The notes under the pieces are model-generated. The model was not told the DNA's origin. It made no database searches and saw nothing but the letters and a program-made list of their open reading frames with translations. A DNA stretch of 64,000 bases from Parcubacteria group bacterium. GTDB taxonomy: Bacteria; Patescibacteriota; Patescibacteriia; UBA9934; GWF2-40-263. Positions 18,709 through 47,400 of this stretch are shown piece after piece; position 1 is the stretch's first letter, and each line of letters begins with the position of its first letter. The DNA lies in NCBI GenBank assembly GCA_013204395.1, contig JABMNZ010000008.1, positions 15,014 through 79,013 of the forward strand. Direction: 5' to 3'. The translations under genes and the position numbers were made by a program.

Positions 18709-18784
18709 GGCGGCTATGGTGAAACGGTTATCACACGGGCTTGTGGTGCCTGTATTACGGGTTCGATTCCCGTTAGCCGCCCCA
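18709..18784 (+). tRNA. tRNA-His (anticodon GTG) with encoded G-1 and CCA
   Basis: G-1 + acceptor GCGGCTA/TAGCCGC, discriminator C73, anticodon loop TTGTGGT, T-arm ACGGGTTCGATTCCCGT. A palindromic terminator follows at 18785-18825. Confidence 0.85.
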
Positions 18785-18964
18785 TATAAAAACCTCGGCT
18801 TCTGCCGGGGTTTTTATATGGGGCGGTGAATGAGGATGAGCCACCCGTCTGGTTCGATGATGGAGAGAGTGAGCGTAATAGACAAAAGTCGGTATGTTCC
18901 ACAACGACTTTTGTCTATTGCCGAACGAACGACATCAATATGGCCGGTACCTCTGCAGGGCCAT

Positions 18965-33180: not shown

Positions 33181-36100
33181 GTGCGTACGATCATCAACGC
33201 AACTCGAAACATCTTATTAGTCGCGGTTCTAGCAACGGCGATTGTTATGGGTGCTTCACAGGTGTCGGCAGCGACGCTTACTGTAGGGAATGATTATTCT
33301 TCGACACTGCAAATTTCCCAGCAGGCGAACCATTCAGTGATCTTTACAACCCCAACAGGTATAGCAGAAGGTGAAACTCTTACGATTACTTTTGCCACAG
33401 CTTTCAACACATCTTCAATCACTGAGGACGATGTCGATATTGCTGACGATGGTGTTGACCTAACAACCAGCTCAACATGTGCGTCTACTGAGCAGGCATC
33501 AGTGTCAATTGCTTCTGATGTAGTGACGATTACTATTTGTGCTGGTGATGGCGGTGCAATTGCAGCAGCCAGCCAGGTTACTGTCGAGATTGGCACGAAC
33601 GCCTCTTCTTCAGGAACGGGTGCAAACAAAGCCACAAATCCATCAGGTGCTGGAACATATTTTGTAACTATAGCTGGAACGTTCAGTGATCGAGGTTCAA
33701 TAGCTCTTCCGATTGGTGGAGACGACAGTATTCCAGTCTCAGTGACGGTTCCTGAGGTGGAGAGTGGTGGTGGTGACACGCTAGAGGATTCAACCGCTCC
33801 ATCAATAAGCGGGTTAGTAGTTTCTTCAATATCATCGACTTCAGCCATTGTTTCGTGGAGTACAGACGAATCAGGGACTTCGGTGGTTAATTACGGACTG
33901 ACAGAATCGCTTGAGCTTGAAAGTTTTTCAGAGAGTGGTTATGCAACATCTCATGTTGTGACGATGACTGGTCTTGTGGAAGGTCAGACATATTACATAA
34001 GTGCTACTTCAGCAGATTCAATTGGAAATTCGGCGACTTCCAGCACAACAGCTTTCACAACCTTGGATCTTACTCCACCTGTACTTTCAGATATTGAAGT
34101 AATCGACATTACTTACGATTCTGCGCGAGTTACTTGGACAACTGATGAGTCTGCGAATAGCATCGTTTCATATGGCGAAACTGATGCATATCTATTGTCT
34201 GCATCTACCAGTGCATTCGTTACTTTGCACAGCGTTCTACTTTCTGGGTTGAGTGAAGGAACTGAATATCATTTTCAAGTTGGTTCAACCGATCAATCTT
34301 CAAACCAAGTTTTTTCAAGTGATGAAACGTTTACGACAGGTGAGAATCTCCCACCATCAAATGTTTCTGGATTGGTAATAGTGAGTGGAATAAGTAAGTT
34401 GTCACTTTCCTGGACGAATCCGACCGACGATGATTTGGCTGGAATTCGCGTGCTGTTTTGTGAAGATGAATATCCTGACAGTCCCACTGATACAGACTGT
34501 TCAATTACAAATTATGGTCTTGTTGAGGAAGCTACGTTATCGGGCTTAACAGCGGGGGTTACGTACTACCTGGGGGTATTTACTTATGATGATGTAGGGC
34601 AGTTTGCTTCTGGCGCGCTTGGAATTGGGTTACCAAGTGCTCCAGAAGAAGAGTTGCCCTCAGAAGAAGATGATTCTGAGGATGAGTCGGATGAAGATAC
34701 TGGCAGCGGAGACGATCCTGTGGATGAGCCCACAGACGATTCTGAGTCAGGTGATTCCGACGAAGGAGGCGATGACGGTGACAGCTCGGACACAGACGGT
34801 TCCACGGACCTGGCGGTTTTTTGTGGAGATGGTGTGTGTTCAGGGTCTGAATCTCAAGCATCGTGTCCAATCGATTGTGCCAGCGATAGTGAGCCAACCT
34901 CCCTGGGTGCGGAGGAAGGTGAGTTGTCAGATGGCGATATCGAATACTTAGTAGCAGATCGATCTATTTCGCTTGAGACCACCAGCTCCGGTGTGGTCGA
35001 AGTACTTCCCACAAGTACGCTAAGCGTTCAGATCCATGCACGTGAGCTGTCTGATAATGTCAGCTCTATACAGCTGTCAATTGGCAGCGAATTGTTCCTA
35101 CTGTCTCTCGATGAGACGCTCGTTCTTTACAACGCAGATGTTACCGTACCAGCCCAATCGGGCATTCAGCAGGTAACCGTTCTCGTTTTATACGATGACG
35201 GCTCCACTGAAACGGTTTCTTCATACCTGCGTGTAGTCACTCCAGGCTACATATATCAGGTCATCGATGGTGAAGAAGTCGCAGTAACAGACGCAAACAT
35301 TACACTCTATGAAGTTGTTGGTGGAGAACAAATTGTTTGGGATGGGTCCCCATACGATCAGTTCAACCCAATAACTGTTAACTCAGATGGAACATTCTCT
35401 TGGTATGTACCAAACGGTACATACATTGTAGAAGTTCAAGCAGAAGGTTTTGAGACTACAAATTCTGGCCAGCTTGTAATCACAAATTCGATTGTGAATC
35501 ATCGCATTGCCATCGCATCGTACGAGCGTGTGCAGGACGAGGATCCAGTTACTGATGCAGAATCTGAGGATGACGAAAAAGAAACTATTACCGTTATTGG
35601 TGTAATTGAGACAATGCTCGATTATAAACCACTTCAGGCGGTAAGGGAGTCCCTCGAAGTAGTTCGAGATCTTCCAGGTGTTGAAGGGGCAGCAGAGGTT
35701 TCTGTCCCCACACTTGCCATTACTGCAGGGGCAAGTGTGGTGATGCTTTCTGTCGCATTCGATTTCCTTCCTTTCCTACAATATCTTTTCACAGCGCCAG
35801 TACTATTTTTCTGGCGTCGACGTAGGAAGAGTTACGGGGTCGTTTATAACGCTATCTCCAAGACTCCAGTAGATCTTGCAGTGGTGCGTCTCTTCAAAGT
35901 CACGGCTCAAGATGAGGCGGCTGGTTTGCCTGGCCGTCTCGTCAAGAGTCGAGTTACAGATAAAGGGGGTAGATATTTCTTCCTGGTTGACCCAGGAAGG
36001 TATCGTATAACAGCTACAAAAGGTGGGTTTCAGTTCCCATCTGAGTACATGGCTGGAGAAAAGACAGACGGTCAGTATCTAGATGTTTACCATCTCGAGC

Positions 36101-36666
36101 CGATCGAAGTTACAGAGGCAAGTGCGGTTATCTCCGCAAATATTCCGCTCGATCCTCTGCAGCAAAGTTCTGCTCAGGCAGCTACTTCGTATAAGAGAGG
36201 TCGGCTTCTACGACACATGCAACACACAGTCGCGTTTGCAGGTGTGATAGCGGCAGTTATCTTCGCAATCATCCGCCCAACACCGTTTTCAGTAGGAATG
36301 ATTGTTATACAGCTCTGTGTGCTCGTTCTTGCAAAGCGTTTGGCACGCCCAAGGAAACCAATTAGCTGGGGAGTTGTTTACGACAAGGGCACTGGAAGAC
36401 CACTATCTAGAGTTGTTACTCGTATCTTTGAGCCAAAGTACAACAAGGTTCTTGAGACTCAAGTGACCGATAGCAAGGGTAGATACTCGTTCATGCTTGG
36501 ACCAAACACGTATTACGCCACCTTCCAAAAAGATGGGTTTCACACAGTCGAGGTTCGTCCAATTGATTACTCTCAGTTAAAGGAGCCAGTTGATTTCTCT
36601 GAGGAGGTTGGACTTGAACCAGACGTCACAGCATCAACACCACCACAGCCACCATCAAATATTTAG
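33181..36666 (+). CDS. Large (1161 aa) polytopic surface protein with three FN3-like domains, an acidic linker, a Cys-knot motif and three CarboxypepD_reg-like domains separated by TM helices
   Basis: Three repeated FN3-like units (…SWSTDESGTSVVNYG…, …TWTTDESANSIVSYG…, …SWTNPTDDD…). Linker EEDDSEDESDEDTGSGDD… Cys motif CGDGVCSGSESQASCPIDC. Three repeats of the type VTDANITLYEV…GTYIVEV. At least two multi-helix TM blocks. Confidence 0.7.
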   Translation: MRTIINATRNILLVAVLATAIVMGASQVSAATLTVGNDYSSTLQISQQANHSVIFTTPTGIAEGETLTITFATAFNTSSITEDDVDIADDGVDLTTSSTCASTEQASVSIASDVVTITICAGDGGAIAAASQVTVEIGTNASSSGTGANKATNPSGAGTYFVTIAGTFSDRGSIALPIGGDDSIPVSVTVPEVESGGGDTLEDSTAPSISGLVVSSISSTSAIVSWSTDESGTSVVNYGLTESLELESFSESGYATSHVVTMTGLVEGQTYYISATSADSIGNSATSSTTAFTTLDLTPPVLSDIEVIDITYDSARVTWTTDESANSIVSYGETDAYLLSASTSAFVTLHSVLLSGLSEGTEYHFQVGSTDQSSNQVFSSDETFTTGENLPPSNVSGLVIVSGISKLSLSWTNPTDDDLAGIRVLFCEDEYPDSPTDTDCSITNYGLVEEATLSGLTAGVTYYLGVFTYDDVGQFASGALGIGLPSAPEEELPSEEDDSEDESDEDTGSGDDPVDEPTDDSESGDSDEGGDDGDSSDTDGSTDLAVFCGDGVCSGSESQASCPIDCASDSEPTSLGAEEGELSDGDIEYLVADRSISLETTSSGVVEVLPTSTLSVQIHARELSDNVSSIQLSIGSELFLLSLDETLVLYNADVTVPAQSGIQQVTVLVLYDDGSTETVSSYLRVVTPGYIYQVIDGEEVAVTDANITLYEVVGGEQIVWDGSPYDQFNPITVNSDGTFSWYVPNGTYIVEVQAEGFETTNSGQLVITNSIVNHRIAIASYERVQDEDPVTDAESEDDEKETITVIGVIETMLDYKPLQAVRESLEVVRDLPGVEGAAEVSVPTLAITAGASVVMLSVAFDFLPFLQYLFTAPVLFFWRRRRKSYGVVYNAISKTPVDLAVVRLFKVTAQDEAAGLPGRLVKSRVTDKGGRYFFLVDPGRYRITATKGGFQFPSEYMAGEKTDGQYLDVYHLEPIEVTEASAVISANIPLDPLQQSSAQAATSYKRGRLLRHMQHTVAFAGVIAAVIFAIIRPTPFSVGMIVIQLCVLVLAKRLARPRKPISWGVVYDKGTGRPLSRVVTRIFEPKYNKVLETQVTDSKGRYSFMLGPNTYYATFQKDGFHTVEVRPIDYSQLKEPVDFSEEVGLEPDVTASTPPQPPSNI

Positions 36667-36673
36667 GAGGAAT

Positions 36674-39600
36674 ATGTTGCTTAAGAGAAGTACACAATTT
36701 GTAACACTCACACTCGTCATCCTTTCTTTGATGGCAGTGTTTGGGGTTGTGTTGTCTGCTGCTCCACCTAATGTGGTTACCTATCAAGGACGAGTTCTTG
36801 ATACTAATGGGGTACCATCAAGCAGCTCTAGCCTCACTATGAAGTTCTTCTTTTATGACGCATCGTCGTCTGGAACATGTCTCTGGTCAAACTCTAGTGC
36901 TGACTGTGATAGTAATACACCAGCCTCAACCACTGGTAGAAGCGTCACCCTAACAACAGGATTGTTTACTCAGAATCTCGGTGATACATCTGATTCTTTC
37001 GCAGCCGTTGCAGATTCTGTGTTTGGCGATAATACATCTGTCTATCTTGAGGTGGACATCGCCGGAGAAACACTCTCTCCAAGAAAGAGGCTTACGGCAG
37101 CACCGTATGCAATTAATGCTCAGCGTCTTGATGGTATAGATTCAACGGGATTTTTAGCCTCAACAGGAGATACGGGAACAGGAATCTTCGATTTCACAGC
37201 AGCAACACTTGCTGGTGCGTCCCCATTCGTATTCGAGGGGACAACAGCAAACGATTTTGAAACAACATTCACGTTCACAGACCCAACAGGTGACAATGTT
37301 TACACATTCAAAGACGGGTCAGGAACAATTGCGTTCACAAGCGACATTTCAGGGACGGGTCTTTGGGAAGATGGTGTGTCTGGTGTATTCGAAGATGATG
37401 AAGCTGTTATTATCGGATCAAATGCCGCATTTACCTATGGTTCTGGTGGCGTGGGAGATTTGCAAGTATTCGATGAACTTGAGGTAATGGGAGACACATT
37501 TATAGACAACGATCTTGTTGTGGGTGCATCGACAAGCTCGACCGAGACTCTTTCCCATACATCTTTTACGCTCGATGGTGATGATCTGTTCGTTGCTGGG
37601 ACATTAGGGGTTGAAGGAGTTGTTTATTCAGATGGAGGGTTTACAGCAAGTACAACAACAACGTTTGGTGCAGGCGCTATTACCACCACAGGCTCGACAG
37701 ACTTAGCTCTGACGATTGCCGGTGGTGATTTGACGTTTGCACAAAACACTACCATTGGTGATGGGGGTGACACCATCGCAATTAGCACATCTGACTGGAA
37801 CATTACAGCAACAGGAAATCTTTCTGGTATTGGGACGATTGCAACAGATGGTGATGCCACACTGGGTGCTGACCTCATAATCTCTTCAGGTGTACGTATC
37901 GGGACAGGATCAACTCCAGCTAGTTTTACTGCTCTAGCAAACGACAGCCTGTTTGTTGAAGGGGCTATAGAGGTAGATGGTGCTGCTCGCTTTGACTCAA
38001 CAATGGATATCAATGGCATTCCTTCCATTGGAGCAGACATTACCTTTAATGCTGCCACCCCAACTATTGTTATTACAAATGGAGAAACATTTGCAATTAC
38101 CGACGGAACAAATACACTTTTTTCTTTGGTGGATGGTGGAACTGGCGGGAACCTAATTCTTACTGGAGATCTCACGATTGCTGGGGATGATTTAACCATG
38201 GACACCAATACAGCGGGCTTTCTCTTGGTAGGTGATGGAACAAATTACAACCCAGTCGATATTAGTGGAGACATAGATTTAGATTCCTCGGGTGTTGCAA
38301 CTGTCCAAGCTAACTCCGTGGCCCTTTCCACAGACACAACTGGTAACTATGTTGCAACCGTTAGTGATGCTGGTAATGGCACCATTACCGTTGGAGGTGC
38401 TGCTGGAGAAGGAACCGTCATTACTCTTGATGCGGTAAACGTGAACTGTAACGATTGTCTAGACTTTGCTGAGCTCTCGGATGCCCTTACCCTAGACGCC
38501 TCCACATCCATAACCATGGATAGCACGGACCAACTTCTTATAACCAATGGAGGTACTGGAGACGTCATCTTCAATCTTTCTTCTACCGGAGACTTTGTTA
38601 TTCAAGATAATGGGACACCAAGCTTTACTGCTTCTGACAATGGAGCGTTTACGTTTGATGGTGCTGTTACATTTAATTCAGCAACCACACATACACTTGC
38701 CACTAGTGAGAGCATTGCGATATCCAATAATACGGCGACGGCAGACACTTTTGATATTTCGGTTACAGCAGCAGGTAATGATGCGCAAGAGATAAACTTC
38801 ACTCTCGGTAATGACGGAGACAATGACACAGTCAATGCCTTGGAGATCAACGTCACGTCTGCCACGACAGGTGAGGAGGATGTTATTCGGGGGTTACATA
38901 TCGCACCACTGTCTTCAGCTGATGCTAGCGTGACAGAACAAGCGCTTGTGATTGGCTCTGGCTGGGATACAAATTTGTTTTTCAATGATACGTCAACAGT
39001 TATTGAATTGGCTGATACTGGCGTAATCACGTGGAGAGAAGCTGGAGGTACTAATACCCTCATGACCCTCACAGATAATGCCAACGTCGGCGACTTGCTC
39101 ATCTCCGGTGATTTCACGATTCAAGGCGACAATCTAGATTCAGCAGGAGCCCCTCTTGTTCTAAATGCTACAGCCGCCGACGAAGTGCGTGTTGGTACAG
39201 GTACTCCTGGGGTGGCGACAGGTGCGGGGGACTTCTATGTCACAAGCGACATAGAAGCTGATGGAAATTTGAATATTGCTGGGTCTGCGACGATTGGAAG
39301 CCTTGTTTGTAATGACTGTTTTGACTTTACTGAGTTTGCTGATGCGCTTGCTTTAGACGCCTCCACATCCATAACCATGGATAGCACGGACCAACTTCTT
39401 GTAACCAATGGAGGTGCTGGAGACGTCATCTTCAACCTTTCTTCTTCTGGTGATTTCGTGATTCAAGATGGGGCTACGCCAATATTTACAGCTGGAGGCG
39501 ATGGCACGTTTACGTTTGATGGTGCCACAACATTTAACACAGATGTGACCTACACCTTAGTTGCGACAGAGAACGTGGCTATTACAAACACATCTGCAGA

Positions 39601-42600
39601 AACAGAAGTTCTAGATCTGACAGTAACTGCAGCAGAGAATGATGGGGCTGAGATTAATTTTACTCTTGGTAATGATGCTGATGCTGACATAGTAAACGCT
39701 CTTGAGATTCGAGCTACATCAGCTTCCACGGGTGATGCGGATGTGCTTAGGGGTATAAATATCGCCCAGCTTTCTTCCTCTGATCCTACTGTTTCAGAAA
39801 TTGCTCTTAGAATAGCGAATGGGTGGGATTCAAATCTTACGTTCGCAGACACATCAACATTTATTGATATCTTGGACACAGGAGTTTTTACATTTAGAGA
39901 GCTTGGTGGCAACAATACCCTCATGACCCTCACAGATAATGCCAACGTCGGAGATCTTGCGCTTACCGGTGACCTTACCGTTAATGGTGACGACATTTCG
40001 TCAGATTCAAATCTATCCATTGCGGCAACGGGGTATGTCCGTATTGGGGACTCTGGAACACCGGGTTCTGCATCTGATGACGATTCTCTTTATGTGGAGG
40101 GTAAGCTTGAAGTAGATGCAACATCAACCTTCGATGGTGTTGTACTTGGAAATAATGACACTACCTTCACTCTATCAGGAACAAATAATTTTCTTATTGA
40201 AAATGGAAGCGCTACTAGTGATTTATTTAGTGTTAAAATAAGTTCAGCACAAAGCAATGGTGAGACGATTCAGTTCGGTCTGGCAGATGATGGTGATGCA
40301 GATACTCTTTCTGCGCTTAATATAGCCGTAACGTCTGCAGCCACAGGTGATGCGGATGTGCTAAGTGCTCTTAACATTGCAAACCTAGCTTCAGCAGATG
40401 GGACGGTTATTGAGACAGCGATTATTATAGGAACTGGTTGGGATACGGGAATTTCCCTTGGAGCTAACTCAATTGTCGGCACAACTGGATTGATTGATTA
40501 CACCAACTTCGATGTTCTTGCTACGGGTGCAATTCAGGTAACACCAAACGTGGGACTAGATACCAATGCGGGGGGGGTGCTTTCTCTTGCTACTACAAAT
40601 GCGACTTCGATTACCACTGGTAACGCGCTGACAACATTCTCGCTTGCGGGCACAGGACTCACAACACTGAATATTGCTACAGCTAACTCTACGGCAGCCA
40701 CACTGAACCTTGCGACTTCTAATCAGGCAAACGTTATTAATATCGGAACGGGTACGGGTATCGATGATATTAATATTGGAGGAGGAGGAACGGGGGTTGA
40801 TACGATAAATATCGGAGATTCTACAGCAACAGTTGCTATACAAGGTGGTTCGATTACATTCACGCCAGGTGATGATGATGGTTCTGGAAGTGGTAGTGAA
40901 GGAGGATTGGTAAAGATGGAATTGAGTCACACCGGAAGCCTTGCTTATGCTCAAGACCCTCAATTTCTGATTGAAGCAGACGGTCCAAGTAATAATAACT
41001 TTACGGGCGTATTTAAGATTGTTCATGCTCCGCCGTCAGATCGATCCGGTGCCTTTGACTTTGCGACTCAGTATATTCAGTTTGACGGAGTGGCAACAAC
41101 AGACAACACGACCCACCAAGCCATCGTAATTGACGGGAACCTTGCAGATGATGGTTCGGATGATAATTTTTATGCCTACGCCGCAAGAATAAATCAGGGT
41201 GACACTTCAGATGTCGCGGTCACTGGGTATGGTGCTGTAGGAGTCATGATTATCAATGAAAATAACACGACAACAGATGCGGGAGACAACTTAGCTGGAT
41301 TCTATTATGACAATCAAGATACGGACGCGGTAACCGTCGATGCATTTAAAGCTGTGTCCAGCGGATCCGCTATTACAGACGGTCTAGATGTCTCCGATTC
41401 AGATATTGTAAATGGTGTGAACGTTGGAGAAAACTTTGTTCTCTATAATGTCTATAGAACGTATGATCTCTCTGGTTCTGGGCTTGTTTGGGAAGATACA
41501 GATGGTAATGACCTCATGATCCTCTCTGATGCGGCGAATGAAGGAGATCTGCTTGCCACTGGAGACATCACAGCAGATGATTTTATCTGTACTGACTGTC
41601 TTGATTTCGCTGAGCTTGCTGATGCCCTTACCGTAGACGCTTCCACGTCCGTCACAATGAATAGCACTGACCAACTTCTTTTCACAAACGGCGGTACTGG
41701 AGACATTATTTTCAATCTTTCATCCACCGGAGATTTTGTGATTCAAGATGGTGGGAACACACGGTTTAGTGTGAACGATTCAGGTGTGACGACAATTGGA
41801 ACAGGGTCAGCTCCGACGGCAGACATGTTAGCTGTTACAAATGCTGGTTTTGCTACAACGACAACAGATGTTAATGCAGCTTCATTCATACACACAGCCT
41901 CGAATGTATCTTCCTCAGCGGTTTACATTGACGGAGCTTTTGCATCTACTACAACTGGTTTGACCTACAACATCTTGGAACTTGGCGCGATTACTCCAAC
42001 CAATACAACAGGAACAGACAATGTGAATGGACTTTTTATTGGGATAATGACTGATGCAACTGTAACAATTAAGTCAGCGGCAATAGATATTTCTACTGGT
42101 TGGGATGTTGATTTCTCTCTCCAAAATTCAGAATTCGTCAGTAACTCTACTGATGGAAAAGTACGTTTTGGTGGGAGTGGAGGTGCAAGCGATACTGATC
42201 TTGTCTTTAATCTTGATGATGCAACTGGTCCAGTACTCCAGTCTACAAGTGATGAGATTGAAATTGATGCCACACTTACCGTTGATTTGATGAATGTTGG
42301 GGCAACCCAGTTTGCCTTATGCCACCCAAACAGCGACTTGATTGATGAGGCGATTGGTGATTGTTCCGGCGCCCCTACGGCTGATTACGCTGAGCAATAC
42401 CCTGTAGCTGCTGGAGTAGGTTTTGGTGATATCGTGGTTCCGTCTACTACCGTGGTTGTCACCAACGATGGTGATGAGATTGTTCAGATGGTTAAGAGCA
42501 GTGAGCCTTACTCTGGCCCTGTTGTCGGCATTGTTTCAGATAACTTTGGGGACTTTACCTCCGCTGGTTACAACATAGATGAAAGTGATAACCCAATGCC

Positions 42601-44431
42601 CGTAGCTCTTGTTGGTCGTGTTCCGGTGAAGGTGACGGCTGAGGGGGGTGATATTTCTGTGGGTGATTACCTAACAACATCATCAACTCCAGGTGCTGCC
42701 ATGCGCGCAACAAAGGTTGGTCGTGTAATTGGTATGGCCTTAAGTGATTGGGATGGTGTGTCTGCAACCGTCATGGTGCAGGTTAACAATTCCTGGTCCA
42801 TGGGAGATGTGATTGGTACGGACGGCGTTTCCACACTCGTTACTGATAACGTCGTTATTTCTCAGTTGAACGAGGCGACAGCGCAGGACACATCTTTCTC
42901 TAGTTACGGATTAGCTCTTAGAGGAAGCGCTTGGGATGGAGATGAGGCGCAAGCGGTTGAGATGATGCTTCAGAACGTTGTTGAAGACGAAGACAATTAT
43001 CGGCTTAGCGTTCGCAATACAGCTGATTCAGAAGTCGCTTATATTACAAACGAAGGAATCATGCGTATTGCAGGTGACATGGTTATTGGCGGCAACTTGT
43101 ATCCTTCAGATAGAGGAGTGCCACAGACGGACAAATATATTTATTACGATGGATCAGCGGGGCCAGGTGGAGACTTCATGCGTACCAACGCTAGCGGTTG
43201 GTCTACGGGGAGTTATGACTTTGCTGAAATGTTCCCATCCACGCAGAAACTAACAGCAGGTGAGTTGGTTGCCTTCTCGGGTAGTGGTCACAACGTACAA
43301 CGTGCAACAGGTGCAGAGGGTGAACAGCTTGCTGGAATCATTTCTACCCGTCCTGGGTTCTTGGCGGGCGAAAACATAGAAGGGGCGTATCCAGTGGCAT
43401 TAGCCGGTCGTGTTCCAACACGTGTAAGTACAGAAGGAGGAGCCATTGCCGTAGGTGATCCTCTTACCATTTCATCTTCACAAGGAATTGCCATGAAGGC
43501 GAAAGAAGCTGGCATGATCGTTGGTTATGCCCTTGAGGCTTATCGCGGTGGATCAGATAACTTGATTCTTACCTATGTGAATCTTAGTTACTGGGTTGGT
43601 GAGACAACAAGCGTCATGCCTGGTACAGATAATCGCGCCTCTGGCTTTGCCACATCTGGAACGAGCAACTTCACCAGCCTGAACATGAGCGGCAACATCT
43701 ATATGGGAACGAATTCCATCACTGGAATCGGTCGTCTTGAGGGTCTTACTGATGCTTGGTCTATTGAGCAGGATGGAACCATTACAACCACTGGTTTGAT
43801 TGTGAGTCTCGCAGAAAATTATCAGGGGGACCAAGTCGAGACCATGGCGGTTACATCTCCTGAGGTCATGATCACTCTTACCGGCACAGCGATTCTTGAA
43901 GACGGTCAGGCTGAAGTTCGATTCGAACAAGTCGCACCAGAATTTAACGACATAATTAGTGCAGAGGCACCGATTCGAGTACTCGTTACTCCAAGTGGAC
44001 CGGTTTCTCTCTATGTCTCAGAAAAAGATCAGAACCACTTTGTGGTAACTCGATTTGCTGGTGAGGGAGATGTCGAATTCGATTGGATGGTCACCGCCTA
44101 TCGTCGTGGTTACGAGCCAGAAGAAATCGAAGAAGTGATAGAGGAGGAGATGGTTGATGAAGTTATCATCGAACCTGTCGTTGAAACGGTGCTCGTGGAG
44201 GACGAACTATCCACTGAGCCTGTCGAAGTGGTCGTAGAAGAAGTCGTCGAAGAGATTGAAGTTATCCAGCCAGTCGAGACAGATCTCACGACATTGTTTA
44301 TTGAGTTAACAGAAGAAGTAGTCGAAGATCCTGTAGATCCTGCAACTCCGGAGAGCCCGGATGAAATCCTTATTGATGAGACAAGTGAGGTTGATGGCGG
44401 CGAATCAGTCGAGACACCACCAAACTTGTAA
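36674..44431 (+). CDS. Giant (about 2585 aa from ATG 36674) secreted repetitive surface protein, adhesin/fibre-like, with a duplicated C-terminal module
   Basis: RBS AGGAGG then ATG 36674 and signal peptide MLLKRSTQFVTLTLVILSLMAVFG. Long internal DNA and protein repeats (CNDCLDFAELSDALTLDASTSITMDSTDQLL[IV]TNGG[TA]GDVIFNLSS[ST]GDFVIQD, three times). A duplicated C-terminal module begins DYAEQYPVAAGVGFGDIVVP... and again YDFAEMFPSTQKLTAGELVAF... The acidic EEVVEE tail ends the protein. Confidence 0.75.
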   Translation: MLLKRSTQFVTLTLVILSLMAVFGVVLSAAPPNVVTYQGRVLDTNGVPSSSSSLTMKFFFYDASSSGTCLWSNSSADCDSNTPASTTGRSVTLTTGLFTQNLGDTSDSFAAVADSVFGDNTSVYLEVDIAGETLSPRKRLTAAPYAINAQRLDGIDSTGFLASTGDTGTGIFDFTAATLAGASPFVFEGTTANDFETTFTFTDPTGDNVYTFKDGSGTIAFTSDISGTGLWEDGVSGVFEDDEAVIIGSNAAFTYGSGGVGDLQVFDELEVMGDTFIDNDLVVGASTSSTETLSHTSFTLDGDDLFVAGTLGVEGVVYSDGGFTASTTTTFGAGAITTTGSTDLALTIAGGDLTFAQNTTIGDGGDTIAISTSDWNITATGNLSGIGTIATDGDATLGADLIISSGVRIGTGSTPASFTALANDSLFVEGAIEVDGAARFDSTMDINGIPSIGADITFNAATPTIVITNGETFAITDGTNTLFSLVDGGTGGNLILTGDLTIAGDDLTMDTNTAGFLLVGDGTNYNPVDISGDIDLDSSGVATVQANSVALSTDTTGNYVATVSDAGNGTITVGGAAGEGTVITLDAVNVNCNDCLDFAELSDALTLDASTSITMDSTDQLLITNGGTGDVIFNLSSTGDFVIQDNGTPSFTASDNGAFTFDGAVTFNSATTHTLATSESIAISNNTATADTFDISVTAAGNDAQEINFTLGNDGDNDTVNALEINVTSATTGEEDVIRGLHIAPLSSADASVTEQALVIGSGWDTNLFFNDTSTVIELADTGVITWREAGGTNTLMTLTDNANVGDLLISGDFTIQGDNLDSAGAPLVLNATAADEVRVGTGTPGVATGAGDFYVTSDIEADGNLNIAGSATIGSLVCNDCFDFTEFADALALDASTSITMDSTDQLLVTNGGAGDVIFNLSSSGDFVIQDGATPIFTAGGDGTFTFDGATTFNTDVTYTLVATENVAITNTSAETEVLDLTVTAAENDGAEINFTLGNDADADIVNALEIRATSASTGDADVLRGINIAQLSSSDPTVSEIALRIANGWDSNLTFADTSTFIDILDTGVFTFRELGGNNTLMTLTDNANVGDLALTGDLTVNGDDISSDSNLSIAATGYVRIGDSGTPGSASDDDSLYVEGKLEVDATSTFDGVVLGNNDTTFTLSGTNNFLIENGSATSDLFSVKISSAQSNGETIQFGLADDGDADTLSALNIAVTSAATGDADVLSALNIANLASADGTVIETAIIIGTGWDTGISLGANSIVGTTGLIDYTNFDVLATGAIQVTPNVGLDTNAGGVLSLATTNATSITTGNALTTFSLAGTGLTTLNIATANSTAATLNLATSNQANVINIGTGTGIDDINIGGGGTGVDTINIGDSTATVAIQGGSITFTPGDDDGSGSGSEGGLVKMELSHTGSLAYAQDPQFLIEADGPSNNNFTGVFKIVHAPPSDRSGAFDFATQYIQFDGVATTDNTTHQAIVIDGNLADDGSDDNFYAYAARINQGDTSDVAVTGYGAVGVMIINENNTTTDAGDNLAGFYYDNQDTDAVTVDAFKAVSSGSAITDGLDVSDSDIVNGVNVGENFVLYNVYRTYDLSGSGLVWEDTDGNDLMILSDAANEGDLLATGDITADDFICTDCLDFAELADALTVDASTSVTMNSTDQLLFTNGGTGDIIFNLSSTGDFVIQDGGNTRFSVNDSGVTTIGTGSAPTADMLAVTNAGFATTTTDVNAASFIHTASNVSSSAVYIDGAFASTTTGLTYNILELGAITPTNTTGTDNVNGLFIGIMTDATVTIKSAAIDISTGWDVDFSLQNSEFVSNSTDGKVRFGGSGGASDTDLVFNLDDATGPVLQSTSDEIEIDATLTVDLMNVGATQFALCHPNSDLIDEAIGDCSGAPTADYAEQYPVAAGVGFGDIVVPSTTVVVTNDGDEIVQMVKSSEPYSGPVVGIVSDNFGDFTSAGYNIDESDNPMPVALVGRVPVKVTAEGGDISVGDYLTTSSTPGAAMRATKVGRVIGMALSDWDGVSATVMVQVNNSWSMGDVIGTDGVSTLVTDNVVISQLNEATAQDTSFSSYGLALRGSAWDGDEAQAVEMMLQNVVEDEDNYRLSVRNTADSEVAYITNEGIMRIAGDMVIGGNLYPSDRGVPQTDKYIYYDGSAGPGGDFMRTNASGWSTGSYDFAEMFPSTQKLTAGELVAFSGSGHNVQRATGAEGEQLAGIISTRPGFLAGENIEGAYPVALAGRVPTRVSTEGGAIAVGDPLTISSSQGIAMKAKEAGMIVGYALEAYRGGSDNLILTYVNLSYWVGETTSVMPGTDNRASGFATSGTSNFTSLNMSGNIYMGTNSITGIGRLEGLTDAWSIEQDGTITTTGLIVSLAENYQGDQVETMAVTSPEVMITLTGTAILEDGQAEVRFEQVAPEFNDIISAEAPIRVLVTPSGPVSLYVSEKDQNHFVVTRFAGEGDVEFDWMVTAYRRGYEPEEIEEVIEEEMVDEVIIEPVVETVLVEDELSTEPVEVVVEEVVEEIEVIQPVETDLTTLFIELTEEVVEDPVDPATPESPDEILIDETSEVDGGESVETPPNL
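38495..38539 (+). repeat. 45-nt segment identical to 39356-39400, at the core of the roughly 160-nt units repeated at about 38447, 39308 and 41588 inside the giant gene
   Basis: gacgcctccacatccataaccatggatagcacggaccaacttctt is identical in both copies. A second family, accctcatgaccctcacagataatgccaacgtcgg, occurs at about 39055 and about 39917. Confidence 0.7.
39356..39400 (+). repeat. Second copy of the 45-nt identical intragenic repeat
   Basis: See the 38495 entry. Confidence 0.7.
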
Positions 44432-44445
44432 TATCAAAAACTATT

Positions 44446-44648
44446 GATACGTAAACAGAAGGGGTCTCTGCAAGAATCTAGTGCGAGGTCAAAGTGAGGA
44501 ATTTTGCTCAGAGTTTTTTTCAAGATGACGAAGTGATATGGAAATATCATTGAGGAGTCATGAAAGAAACTCTGAGTGAAATGACCGCTTTGGGGCCGTG
44601 CTAGATTCTTGCAGAGGTCCCAAAGTCACACGACCTCCTACACGTATC
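44446..44648 (+). repeat. About 200-nt nested inverted-repeat element downstream of the giant gene (structured RNA or MITE-like candidate)
   Basis: Outer arms gatacgt...acgtatc. A 16-bp perfect stem ctctgcaagaatctag (44466-44481) pairs with ctagattcttgcagag (44601-44616). An inner 10-bp stem ctcagagttt (44507-16) pairs with aaactctgag (44567-76). Sub-hairpins gaggtc..gacctc and tgatat..atatca add to it. Confidence 0.5.
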
Positions 44649-45021
44649 AAAACGCTCTTTTAGATAATCTTATCGGGCCACTCAGTTCTTCTTTATTAAA
44701 GGAGGATCGTGATGGCCCGTACAGAGGCTCCATGCTTCCTCTGTAGTGGTACGCAGCCATATGAGGTTCACACAATGAAACTCTGGCATACCCAGTCTAG
44801 CGTTGCTAGGCATGTTTGCCACGCAAGGAAGATGTTCAAGGCTATACAGATCGCTCTTGTATGACCTTGGATGGGTCTTTAGGGCCCACACAATTGAATA
44901 GCAAAGAAACGTGAGAACCCCACACTCGCGTTCTTTGCATTCTGGGGGTTTTTAAAATTGGCGGATTTGAGATCTATGAGTGCCTTGTGAACAACGTTTC
45001 TCTCTAGTCCTGTTATAATAG

Positions 45022-47400
45022 GTGCATATGAATTCTTGGGGAGAACATTTGCGATCAGCTACACGAGGTTGTTTATACCTGCTCGTTTTTTTATTGCCAT
45101 TGATCGCCTTGTCGGTCTCGCTTGAACCCCTTGAATTCAACAAACAAACACTTCTCTTGCTGCTGACATCAGGGGCTGCTCTGTGTTGGCTGGGATCCAT
45201 GGTCGTTGAAAAAAGACTTACGTTCAAACGAGGGCTCATGAACGCACTGCCGCTTGTGTGGGTGGGCGCGTTTATTCTTCCCGCCATCTACTCCATTGCT
45301 CCCTATGTATCTTGGGTTGGCACACACTCTCAGCAGTATGTAAGTGTTTTAACCGCTGGAGCTGTGGCTGTCTTGATGTACCTACTGGCTAACACCTCTA
45401 CAACCAGGGCACATCATCAGCGCATGCACAGTGTCATAACACTCTCAGCAGCCGCGACAGCCCTAGCGACGACATCATTACTGTTCTTCGGTGTTTCTTT
45501 TTTTGGGTCACTTACAGAATCACTGGCTTTTAATAGCGTCGGAACATTAGCGAGCTTGGCTATTTTTCTTACTGCCGTAACGAGCTTTCTTATTGCTTCT
45601 TTGGTGGCACATGAAAAGGAAGATTCGTTATTAGCCGATGGCGTTTGGGGAAAATTTCAAAAGTTGTTCATTCTATTTCTTGCGATCGACACATTTGTTA
45701 TTTTGCTTTTGATCGATAATAAGGGGCTGTGGCTCCTGTGGGTTGTGGCGATGCTCATCCCATTTGTCTTTGCCTTTTTTCGCGCAAAGGATTTTTCGCA
45801 CCAAGAGAGACTGCTTTTCCCGCTGGTTCTTGCCGTTGCTGCCTTACCCTTCTGGTTTTTCTTAGCCTCTCCACTCACGATCGCGATTCCCATTGAAGTG
45901 AGTCCTGACACAGAAAGTTCGATGGCCATTGCCCAGCAGGCCCTTGATACGCATTCTAGTAGTTATGGATCTGGACCCGGAACCTATGCCATGGACTACG
46001 CACGGTTCCACGATGAACGTGTTAATCAAACAGACTTTTGGAACACAAGATTTGATCGAGCTTCATCTCACGTACTCACATTGCTCCCAACCATGGGTAC
46101 CCTTGGAGTGAGTTTGCTTGGTTTGTTTGTACTTATTTTGTTTATGAGAGCCATCCACCAAACATTGGTGAAACCAGGGCGGGATGAATGGTTGGAGAGT
46201 TTCGTCCACATAACTCCTTGGATCGTTCTAGTAATAAGCGCCTTTCTTTTCCCCTGGAACATGACCCTTACGGTATTATTTGGTGTCTTCTCTGGGCTTC
46301 TTTTATCACAAACACTTCCGCGGTCAACAAACAGATCATTTGATAAGTCTCCCGCCCTTGCTCTTCTTGCCTCAACGCTATTAGTGGCTCTTTCACTGGG
46401 GCTCTTAGTGGGTGTGTTTGTTACCACTCAACGCTATGTGGCTCAGCGAGCATTTGCCCAGGCTGTAGAAATCGATCGGTCTGGAGGTGAGCTAAAGGAT
46501 ATTGTGGCTTCCCTGGACAAAGCAACATCTCTTAATCGATTTGACGATACTTATTTCCGTAATCTTGCTGATGCACTTTTGCTTCGCACCGATGAAGAAC
46601 TCAAGGGGGTTAATAGTGTTGATACCCTCACACCTGAAAGTGCTCAGTACATCCAATCGCTTGTTGCCGCAACTGTTAATGCAGCGGCGCGCGCCACAGA
46701 TCTCTCACCAGAGAATGCATTAAATTGGCTTGTTCGTGGTCGGATTTATCAAGAACTTATTCCCATCATGAGCACGGCATCAGAATTTTCCATTTCGAGT
46801 TTTGTTCGGGCGGTGGAACTTGAACCACTGAATCCTTCGCACTGGACTGAACTAGGAATAGCTTATCTCGCCGTCGCCCAGCATATCCAACCAATGACAG
46901 CGGCAGAAGATAAAGAGGCGGCGGCTCAGGCACTTACCACGCACACAGAGTTTCTTGCTTCTGCTCAAAGTTCATTTATTAGGGCGACGGAACTAAAACC
47001 AAACTACGCTCAAGCTCACTATCAACTATCATTGGCTTTTCAGAGGCAGGGTCGCATTGATGAGGCTATTACAAAAATGGAAAGCGTGGCAGCTTATAAT
47101 CAAATTGATGTTGGTGTGCTATTCCAGTTGGGTCTCCTATACCTACAAAGAGGGGATGCTGGTGATGTGGCACTCGCTCAAGCTGCTCTAGAGAGAACTA
47201 TTTCTTTAGCCCCAAGTTATGCAAATGCTTACTGGTTCTTAGCAACGGTGTACGAGGCACAGGGAGATCTTAGTCGCGCAGTGCAAGCAGTTGAGGCTGT
47301 TCTGAGTCTTGAGCCAAATAATCGTCTAGTACAAACACGTCTAGATCGTCTCCTGCAAGGTAATCCAACTGGGGAGTTACCAGAGGCACTAGTAGAATAA
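45022..47400 (+). CDS. Polytopic membrane protein (O-antigen ligase/Wzy-like) fused to C-terminal TPR repeats. GTG 45022 is the track start; an ATG at 45028 is also possible
   Basis: The N-terminal roughly 450 aa holds 10 or more TM helices. The C-terminal roughly 300 aa has TPR-like repeats (AQAHYQLSLAFQRQGRIDEAI..., ANAYWFLATVYEAQGDLSRAV...). Confidence 0.65.
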   Translation: MHMNSWGEHLRSATRGCLYLLVFLLPLIALSVSLEPLEFNKQTLLLLLTSGAALCWLGSMVVEKRLTFKRGLMNALPLVWVGAFILPAIYSIAPYVSWVGTHSQQYVSVLTAGAVAVLMYLLANTSTTRAHHQRMHSVITLSAAATALATTSLLFFGVSFFGSLTESLAFNSVGTLASLAIFLTAVTSFLIASLVAHEKEDSLLADGVWGKFQKLFILFLAIDTFVILLLIDNKGLWLLWVVAMLIPFVFAFFRAKDFSHQERLLFPLVLAVAALPFWFFLASPLTIAIPIEVSPDTESSMAIAQQALDTHSSSYGSGPGTYAMDYARFHDERVNQTDFWNTRFDRASSHVLTLLPTMGTLGVSLLGLFVLILFMRAIHQTLVKPGRDEWLESFVHITPWIVLVISAFLFPWNMTLTVLFGVFSGLLLSQTLPRSTNRSFDKSPALALLASTLLVALSLGLLVGVFVTTQRYVAQRAFAQAVEIDRSGGELKDIVASLDKATSLNRFDDTYFRNLADALLLRTDEELKGVNSVDTLTPESAQYIQSLVAATVNAAARATDLSPENALNWLVRGRIYQELIPIMSTASEFSISSFVRAVELEPLNPSHWTELGIAYLAVAQHIQPMTAAEDKEAAAQALTTHTEFLASAQSSFIRATELKPNYAQAHYQLSLAFQRQGRIDEAITKMESVAAYNQIDVGVLFQLGLLYLQRGDAGDVALAQAALERTISLAPSYANAYWFLATVYEAQGDLSRAVQAVEAVLSLEPNNRLVQTRLDRLLQGNPTGELPEALVE

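Follow-up and report, generated by a model that had tools for sequence, protein, structure and literature searches.

A patchily distributed long hairpin beside a conserved structured RNA, downstream of a giant gene in an uncultured Patescibacteria bacterium

The window analyzed here, a single stretch of 64,000 nt, carries a long hairpin between a giant open reading frame (ORF) and a downstream TPR/membrane-protein gene. The core of this hairpin, a 161-nt rod, is likely to be a selected plus-strand RNA structure. We give about even weight to a fuller reading, which draws on sequence comparison and structure prediction: a lineage-specific selected RNA domain in the 3′ untranslated region (UTR) of the giant gene, which probably serves RNase III processing or transcript stability and resembles the intervening sequences (IVS) of rRNA. 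Double-strand-specific (RNase III-type) processing or stability as the mechanism is a tentative proposal that we rate somewhat below even. Transcription of the region, a transcript shared with the giant gene and cutting of the rod by RNase III are what we infer.

The window comes from an uncultured member of the Patescibacteria (CPR) with affinities to Candidatus Uhrbacteria, and the best named relatives of the TPR/membrane protein encoded downstream of the hairpin are those of Candidatus Uhrbacteria and the Patescibacteria group. The giant ORF (36590–44431, plus strand) encodes at least 2613 aa and has no Pfam domain; every relative has an orthologue, of 1890–3218 aa, upstream of its TPR gene, and the order of giant ORF, 190–600 nt spacer and TPR gene is kept in all eight lineages that we compared (the window, L001, L004, L006, L141, L142, L143, and L144). 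The ORF preceding the giant one encodes 1161 aa with fn3, purple-acid-phosphatase-N-like and carboxypeptidase-regulatory-like domains, and both of these very large ORFs probably encode cell-surface proteins. They follow one another on the plus strand over 33181–44431, and as mechanically called they overlap at 36590–36666.

RNA folding of the spacer gave one continuous hairpin over 44444–44650 of the plus strand. Its outer 9-bp stem, in which the 5′ strand TTGATACGT (44444–44452) pairs with the 3′ strand ACGTATCAA (44642–44650), is a pre-existing small hairpin, and the rod (44461–44621, delimited by the fold and by the indel boundaries in the alignment with L001) is a long-hairpin insertion in the loop of that stem. 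The rod contains 68 predicted pairs, or approximately 73 when three tandem G·A pairs are added. Its arms include a 16-bp perfect segment (44466–44481, CTCTGCAAGAATCTAG, with 44601–44616, CTAGATTCTTGCAGAG) and a 10-bp perfect segment (44507–44516, CTCAGAGTTT, with 44567–44576, AAACTCTGAG). A preliminary description of this DNA had reported both perfect stems, as well as imperfect pairing out to gatacgt/acgtatc, and each of these is present, the last of them as the outer stem; where it spoke of a nested element, all of the stems are real, but they are segments of one continuous rod and not separate hairpins. What remains of the loop of the outer hairpin holds a 3-bp hairpin, GTC-ACAC-GAC (44625–44634, plus strand), which is part of the ancestral loop sequence, ACACGACC being found also in L001 and L141.

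The rod is capped by a GGAA loop of the GNRA type (44540–44543). The three tandem 5′-GA-3′/3′-AG-5′ pairs are located at 44499–500/44583–84, 44527–28/44555–56, and 44530–31/44552–53, and the last two of these together with the loop make up an apical motif, 5′-UGACGAA/UGAGGAG-3′. The internal loops of this motif are symmetric and there is no 3-nt bulge, and a K-turn or C/D-box reading of it was rejected.

The fold is far beyond chance. For a 249-nt stretch of the plus strand the minimum free energy as RNA was −112.4 kcal/mol, compared with −58.3 ± 4.5 kcal/mol in 200 dinucleotide shuffles (z = −11.9), none of which folded as well as the element. The outer stem begins 13 nt and the rod 30 nt 3′ of the stop codon of the giant gene, and a second structured RNA, described below, begins roughly 45 nt downstream of the rod. 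All ORFs overlapping the element are of 45 aa or fewer, in agreement with the earlier statement that no ORF is present. Also borne out was the remark that there is more structure here than a terminator needs: the sequence following the rod is CCCAAAGUCACACG, with no U-run, and the real terminator lies approximately 300 nt downstream. An intrinsic terminator was thus rejected as an identity for the hairpin, none being called at 44444–44650 and a separate, covarying one being found at 44901–44938. Other inverted repeats of at least 24 nt in the 64-kb window were limited to a tRNA-His end and terminator, where a 34-nt arm pair (18766–18837, 82% complementary) overlaps the 3′ end of tRNA-His and runs into a probable terminator.

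The two strands differ markedly as RNA. The minus strand folds to −84.7 kcal/mol, 28 kcal/mol worse than the plus strand, whereas with DNA parameters the values are −49.3 (plus) and −42.7 kcal/mol (minus), a strand gap of less than 7 kcal/mol. The core arm-to-arm alignment contains 11 G·U oppositions but a single A·C, and six of the nine remaining mismatches make up the three GA/AG tandems; on the minus strand the equivalents of these G·U and G·A features are A·C and pyrimidine-pyrimidine mismatches. The G·U pairs, the tandem G·A pairs and the GNRA loop all favor plus-strand RNA. As double-stranded DNA the arms are only 74–76% complementary, and such RNA-only pairs may permit a long RNA helix without a perfect, unstable DNA palindrome. 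Folded as single-stranded DNA the element still beats shuffled sequences (z = −8.5 and −7.5), and because G·T and tandem G·A oppositions destabilize such DNA less than other mismatches do, a single-stranded-DNA role on the plus strand is improbable but conceivable.

The distribution of the rod is patchy at close phylogenetic range. TPR protein identity to the window is 95% for L001–L003, 88% for L004, L005, and L066, 71% for L006, and 55–61% for L141–L144. The rod is present in the window and in the L004 lineage (L004, L005, and L066), at exactly the same junctions, and absent from L001, the closest relative, as well as from L006, L141, L142, L143, and L144. In its place L001 has only a small hairpin, TTGATACGTAAACA-TG-AAGTCATACGACCTCCTACACGTATCAA, of which L006 has its own rod-free version, TTGATGTG/CATATCAA; some smaller hairpin occurs between the stop codon and the second structured RNA in L001, L006, L141, and L143, so that hairpins are evidently tolerated at this site. 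Given that the flanking genes yield the tree ((window, L001), L004), presence in the window and L004 but not in L001 requires two events, gain and later loss in L001 or else gain on two occasions, and absence from L001 shows that the rod is dispensable in that lineage. Recombination was rejected as the cause of this pattern. Across 300-nt bins, topology-informative sites group the window with L001 in each of the two flanking genes and show no excess of sites shared by the window and L004 beside the rod, and hence no sign of a transferred tract. Within the spacer, sites shared by L001 and L004 are as frequent as those shared by the window and L001, unlike the situation in either flanking gene, which points to a locally raised rate of evolution in the window lineage or to recombination long ago.

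The element is not an assembly artefact, which is ruled out by its occurrence in three independent assemblies of the related lineage: L004 (ENA), L005 (Logan), and L066 (JGI). Sequence of the L004 type is present in SRR3988559 and ERZ4200961. A Logan contig that is 100% identical to the window (L145, SRR28106091) starts inside the right arm, at 44564, and thus breaks 23 nt past the apex. The break may reflect a drop in coverage or graph branching at the hairpin, and assemblies of strains with the hairpin may be systematically fragmented. Apart from the L004 copy, no other long hairpin was found in 64 kb of the orthologous loci.

Where it is present, the rod is strongly conserved. The window and L004 versions are 97.6% identical, with four changes in 164 nt, all of them transitions, while the remaining spacer is 90.6% identical and third codon positions are only 59% (giant gene) and 53% (TPR gene) identical, against 89–92% at first and second positions. 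Over a 207-nt region the two differ by six substitutions, four at paired sites and two in loops. Three of the four paired-site substitutions keep the pair (one G·U becoming A-U and two G-C pairs becoming G·U) and one breaks it, a count that is not significant alone, the rod being known in two sequence variants only. Both-sided compensatory changes within the rod were not seen among these two variants. The substitution pattern fits strong selection for uninterrupted pairing, although two variants do not amount to proof by covariation.

Downstream of the rod, at about 44667–44938 of the plus strand, lies a conserved multi-helix RNA, which we refer to as the junction RNA; each of the eight lineages has it in the spacer that separates the giant gene from the TPR gene (L001, 5638–5923; L004, 5638–5922; L006, 5654–5912; L141, 2705–2978; L142, 2838–3012; L143, 2709–2982; L144, 2807–2982). 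Its three-way-junction core (44667–44767, plus strand) consists of a closing stem and the helices P1, P2, and P3, with compensatory changes in most helices. P1 is formed by CGGGCC...GGCCCG with an inner hairpin, GUUCUUCUU/AGGAGGA (SD-like), and the loops of P2 and P3 are CCAUGCUU and ACGCAA, respectively. Beyond the junction follow, in order, a variable region, a 16-bp hairpin (44833–44873, plus strand; alignment columns 192–233), a short GGCC hairpin, and an intrinsic terminator. In the 16-bp hairpin, 8 of 16 pairs show changes on both sides; L142 and L144, whose versions of the RNA are minimal, both lack it. The terminator hairpin (44901–44938, plus strand) has compensatory changes in 7 of 13 pairs and a near-invariant loop, (G/C)ACCCCACA; its T-rich tail abuts the stem in the relatives, while in the window the T run (44949–44953) comes some 10 nt past the stem. 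The variable region includes a hairpin (44776–44830, columns 140–190) that reads TCTAGC/GCTAGG in the window and TCTAAC/GTTAGA in L001 and L004, the paired changes being peculiar to the window.

Across the eight lineages and 69 pairs of the junction RNA, 94.2% of cells are paired, compared with 40–48% in slid controls; changes on both sides occur in 32 of the 69 pairs, and none of 500 shuffles reached any of these measures. A covariance model of the junction (R1) scored 82–111 bits in all eight lineages, with one copy per locus. Two coding interpretations of this segment, a 69-aa minus-strand ORF (44682–44891) and a 53-codon plus-strand ORF behind AGGAGG, were rejected, both being broken by 1-nt indels between close relatives. 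The junction RNA is probably an undescribed motif, absent from Rfam.

A covarying RNA that ends in an intrinsic terminator on the plus strand makes it very likely that the intergenic region is transcribed in the plus direction. The TPR gene has a TATAAT box (45014–45019, plus strand) placed 8–9 nt before its ATG at 45028 and kept in all eight lineages, and on this evidence probably has its own predicted promoter and a leaderless mRNA. The conserved box comes directly after the upstream terminator. The start called mechanically for the TPR ORF, GTG at 45022, is probably two codons too early, with ATG 45028 as the true start. With a probable promoter of its own for the TPR gene, the structured region upstream would not be the TPR leader, and would belong to the giant-gene transcript or stand alone. 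Neither the lineage alignment nor promoter calling of the window revealed a conserved promoter upstream of the junction RNA, which favors the 3′ UTR reading. The preliminary description had proposed a structured small RNA; the structure itself is upheld by the strand asymmetry, the G·U and G·A bias, the conservation and the covarying neighbor, but a free-standing small RNA is doubtful, and the element looks like part of the 3′ UTR of the giant gene.

Outside its orthologous site the rod was not encountered again. Neither an inverted-repeat scan nor low-stringency blastn of the rod detected a second copy in the 64-kb window, and when the entire element was compared by BLAST with the 140 fetched loci, only the orthologous-site copies came back (L004, L005, and L066). 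Searches with the arm 16-mer gave 47 hits in 185,579 GTDB representative genomes (the source genome not being among them), 86 in JGI metagenomes, and 5 in IMG/VR, all of them single-arm chance matches; these scans are of an exact word, which diverged copies would escape, and the source genome is visible for 64 kb only. Phage and plasmid collections searched with blastn in distant mode gave no match to the element. The rod is therefore single-copy in the data searched, and the question of copy number raised earlier is answered to that extent, with no second copy in the 64-kb window and only the orthologous site elsewhere.

The element has no family match in Rfam. A scan of the whole window with Rfam 15 at gathering thresholds detected only four tRNAs, and no rRNA is present in the window; a permissive scan of 44300–45100 gave MIR395 as the best model, at 24.5 bits against a threshold of 56. 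Permissive scans of five orthologous loci matched neither the rod nor the downstream RNA. The sub-threshold models, of plant miRNA precursors and snoRNAs, reflect generic hairpin shape. In the literature on structured RNAs or hairpins in CPR bacteria and Uhrbacteria we found nothing on the element.

We envisage the following sequence of events for the preferred reading. The giant-gene transcript would read through the rod to the terminator at 44901–44938, placing the element in the 3′ untranslated region, where the rod would form a duplex of some 73 bp, almost without interruption, that extends from the loop of the older 9-bp hairpin. RNase III-type cleavage within the rod would part the 8–9 kb giant-gene mRNA from the downstream structured RNA, giving the latter a defined 5′ end and leaving a stem stub at the 3′ end of the mRNA. 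As a rule, bacterial RNase III cleaves duplexes that exceed about two helical turns, and we favor this enzyme because a duplex of ~73 bp that follows a stop codon and precedes a structured RNA is a typical substrate. The presence of RNase III in the source genome is our assumption; a signature-motif scan detected no RNase III gene in the 64-kb window, which is uninformative for the whole genome.

One alternative to the preferred reading is a functional plus-strand rod that is not cleaved and serves as a protein scaffold, as a GNRA docking arm of the junction RNA, or as a block to 3′-exonucleases that stabilizes the giant-gene mRNA. It draws on the same structural and conservation evidence, and the apical G·A/GNRA motif does resemble a recognition or tertiary-contact module more than a plain duplex; against this, a duplex of such length would need special features to escape RNase III, no receptor motif was identified, and there are relatives with the same junction RNA and without the rod. 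Since those relatives have the junction RNA alone, the rod is not an integral domain of it, and we consider an uncleaved functional rod unlikely while giving it some weight. Rather unlikely, in our estimation, is a palindromic mobile or selfish element, MITE-like or of the IVS type, that inserts site-specifically, reached these lineages by independent arrival or transfer, and has no host function. The presence/absence polymorphism of the rod, at odds with the tree ((window, L001), L004), fits such an element, and recent acquisition would account for 97.6% identity of the rod despite saturated synonymous sites. Its ends are inverted repeats, GGGTCTCTGCAAGAATCTAG pairing with CTAGATTCTTGCAGAGGTCCC, which is trivially true for any hairpin, and there is a possible 3–4 bp flanking duplication, GAAG/AAAG, when the filled site, CA-GAAG-[element]-AAAG-TCA, is compared with the L001 empty site, CATGAAGTCA. 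Only AAG (3 bp) is perfectly duplicated, however, and so short and imperfect a duplication, within reach of chance, could also be the microhomology of a deletion and does not decide the matter. No second-site copy was found in the 64-kb window, GTDB, JGI, IMG/VR, phages, or plasmids; no transposase or integrase context was seen, with none of the seven flanking ORFs carrying a transposase, integrase, or recombinase domain in Pfam; the order of genes downstream of the element matches that of L001; and a bias toward G·U and G·A would not be expected at the DNA level. Scans with the arm 16-mer and Pfam searches of the seven flanking ORFs likewise yielded no parent insertion sequence or transposase that shares the ends of the rod. 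The earlier suggestion of a MITE is not supported, with no second-site copy in any collection searched and an ambiguous target-site duplication.

Two further explanations appear highly improbable to us. One is a DNA-level site for recombination, replication, or transposition that operates as a cruciform or as a hairpin of single-stranded DNA, in the manner of attC, of an IS200/IS605 end, or of an origin or terminus. The long inverted repeat, the single-stranded-DNA folds (z = −8.5 and −7.5), and the tolerance of G·T and G·A mismatches in DNA hairpins would be in keeping with such a site, but arms of 74–76% complementarity are poorly suited to cruciform extrusion, GTTRRRY/RYYYAAC attC core sites are missing from the ends, and none of the seven flanking ORFs has a recombinase domain. 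Moreover, no GC-skew switch occurs at the element, which is single-copy and embedded in a covarying region that looks transcribed. The recombination site proposed in the preliminary description is not supported, the strand asymmetry being small with DNA parameters, no integrase or transposase context having been seen, and downstream gene order being as in L001; an integron attC site in particular was rejected, the ends AAACAGAAGGGG and GGTCCCAAAGTCAC lacking core sites, no integrase domain being found in the seven flanking ORFs, and the hairpin being a single one. The other is a neutral quasi-palindrome left by a replication template switch (inverted duplication) and slowly decaying. Long palindromes do arise and get deleted spontaneously in bacteria, and loss in L001 fits such instability; against this explanation stand a divergence of 2.4% where neutral sites differ by 41–47%, mismatches biased toward RNA-compatible types on one strand, and the lack of resemblance of either arm to the flanks (local alignment against shuffles, p = 0.11–0.94). 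The mismatch spectrum and the conservation largely refute it. Local duplication as the origin was rejected after comparing the arms with 400–450 nt of either flank on both strands, which gave no resemblance, and a 16-nt complementarity to 44679–44694 is at chance level.

Knowledge of non-coding RNAs and of how RNA is processed is very scarce for the CPR/Patescibacteria, which are uncultured and have reduced genomes, and the locus described here is a rare case that joins a near-perfect RNA duplex of ~73 bp, under strong purifying selection and yet dispensable in the sister lineage, with a covarying multi-helix RNA that is absent from Rfam, the two being located 3′ of one giant gene. Should the rod prove to be a site for RNase III, it would offer a clear case of 3′-UTR processing or retro-regulation in the CPR group and would suggest that the IVS-type stem insertions of CPR rRNA also occur in other RNAs; if it is a stabilizing hairpin only, it would be a modest lineage-specific curiosity. 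Two bolder ideas, that unrecognized IVS-type hairpins colonize non-ribosomal RNAs and 3′ UTRs in CPR bacteria, or that the rod is a long double-stranded precursor from which RNase III releases small RNAs, strike us as quite unlikely; either, if true, would go together with a novel structured RNA, specific to Uhrbacteria, behind a giant surface-protein gene. The junction RNA is probably a more generally useful lead than the rod.

Among known systems the closest likeness is to the IVS of bacterial rRNA, among them the short insertions without an ORF that rRNA genes of CPR bacteria carry (PMC11270868; PMC4990558). Such ORF-less insertions, shorter than 200 bp and situated at the top or the base of stem-loops in rRNA, are reported to be common in CPR bacteria and are probably RNase III-cut IVS (PMC11270868). 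Like the rod, IVS of 23S and 16S rRNA are insertions of ~100–200 nt in the loop of a pre-existing structured-RNA hairpin, have a long extended stem and no ORF, are patchy among close relatives and typical of bacteria with reduced genomes, and form a duplex of the kind cut by RNase III. The sporadic insertion of an extended stem in the loop of a conserved hairpin is therefore shared, but the location is not: IVS lie in 23S rRNA (helix 25 or 45) or 16S rRNA, whereas the window has no rRNA and the rod stands between protein-coding genes, in an intergenic or 3′ UTR hairpin beside an unnamed structured RNA.

Palindromic repeats such as ERIC, the Rickettsia palindromic elements, and Correia/NEMIS resemble the rod in their size (100–170 bp), in their inverted-repeat ends or imperfect palindromy over the whole length, and in their intergenic position just after a stop codon, and they are transcribed into hairpins. 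Hairpin transcripts of Correia/NEMIS are cut by RNase III, and Rickettsia palindromic elements can sit inside RNA genes. These repeats and MITEs, as well as REP/BIME, are however defined by many dispersed copies, in contrast to the one locus seen in the collections searched, and the rod differs further in the ambiguous duplication at its ends and in a mismatch spectrum that points to selection on RNA. Failing the location test for IVS and the copy-number test for MITEs, the rod is filed as neither.

Plant microRNA precursors (MIR395, MIR403, and mir-3747), the only Rfam models to register any score for the locus, resemble the rod in nothing but the overall form of a long, imperfect hairpin; they score 17–24.5 bits, far under the gathering thresholds of 56–70, and as eukaryotic families they have no homology with it. 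A further parallel, in terms of the proposed function, is offered by the RNase III sites of phages lambda and T7, which like the rod are long irregular hairpins after a coding region with no U-run, and which control the fate of the 3′ end of an upstream mRNA as we propose here. The sib site of lambda, an RNase III site downstream of int, regulates the upstream gene from its 3′ side. These phage hairpins are of about 20–30 bp, against ~73 bp for the rod, which is chromosomal and belongs to a CPR bacterium. Set among these systems, the rod is an IVS-like long stem insertion or a 3′-UTR duplex, which belongs to a phylum that has received little study and is linked to a conserved RNA apparently not described before.
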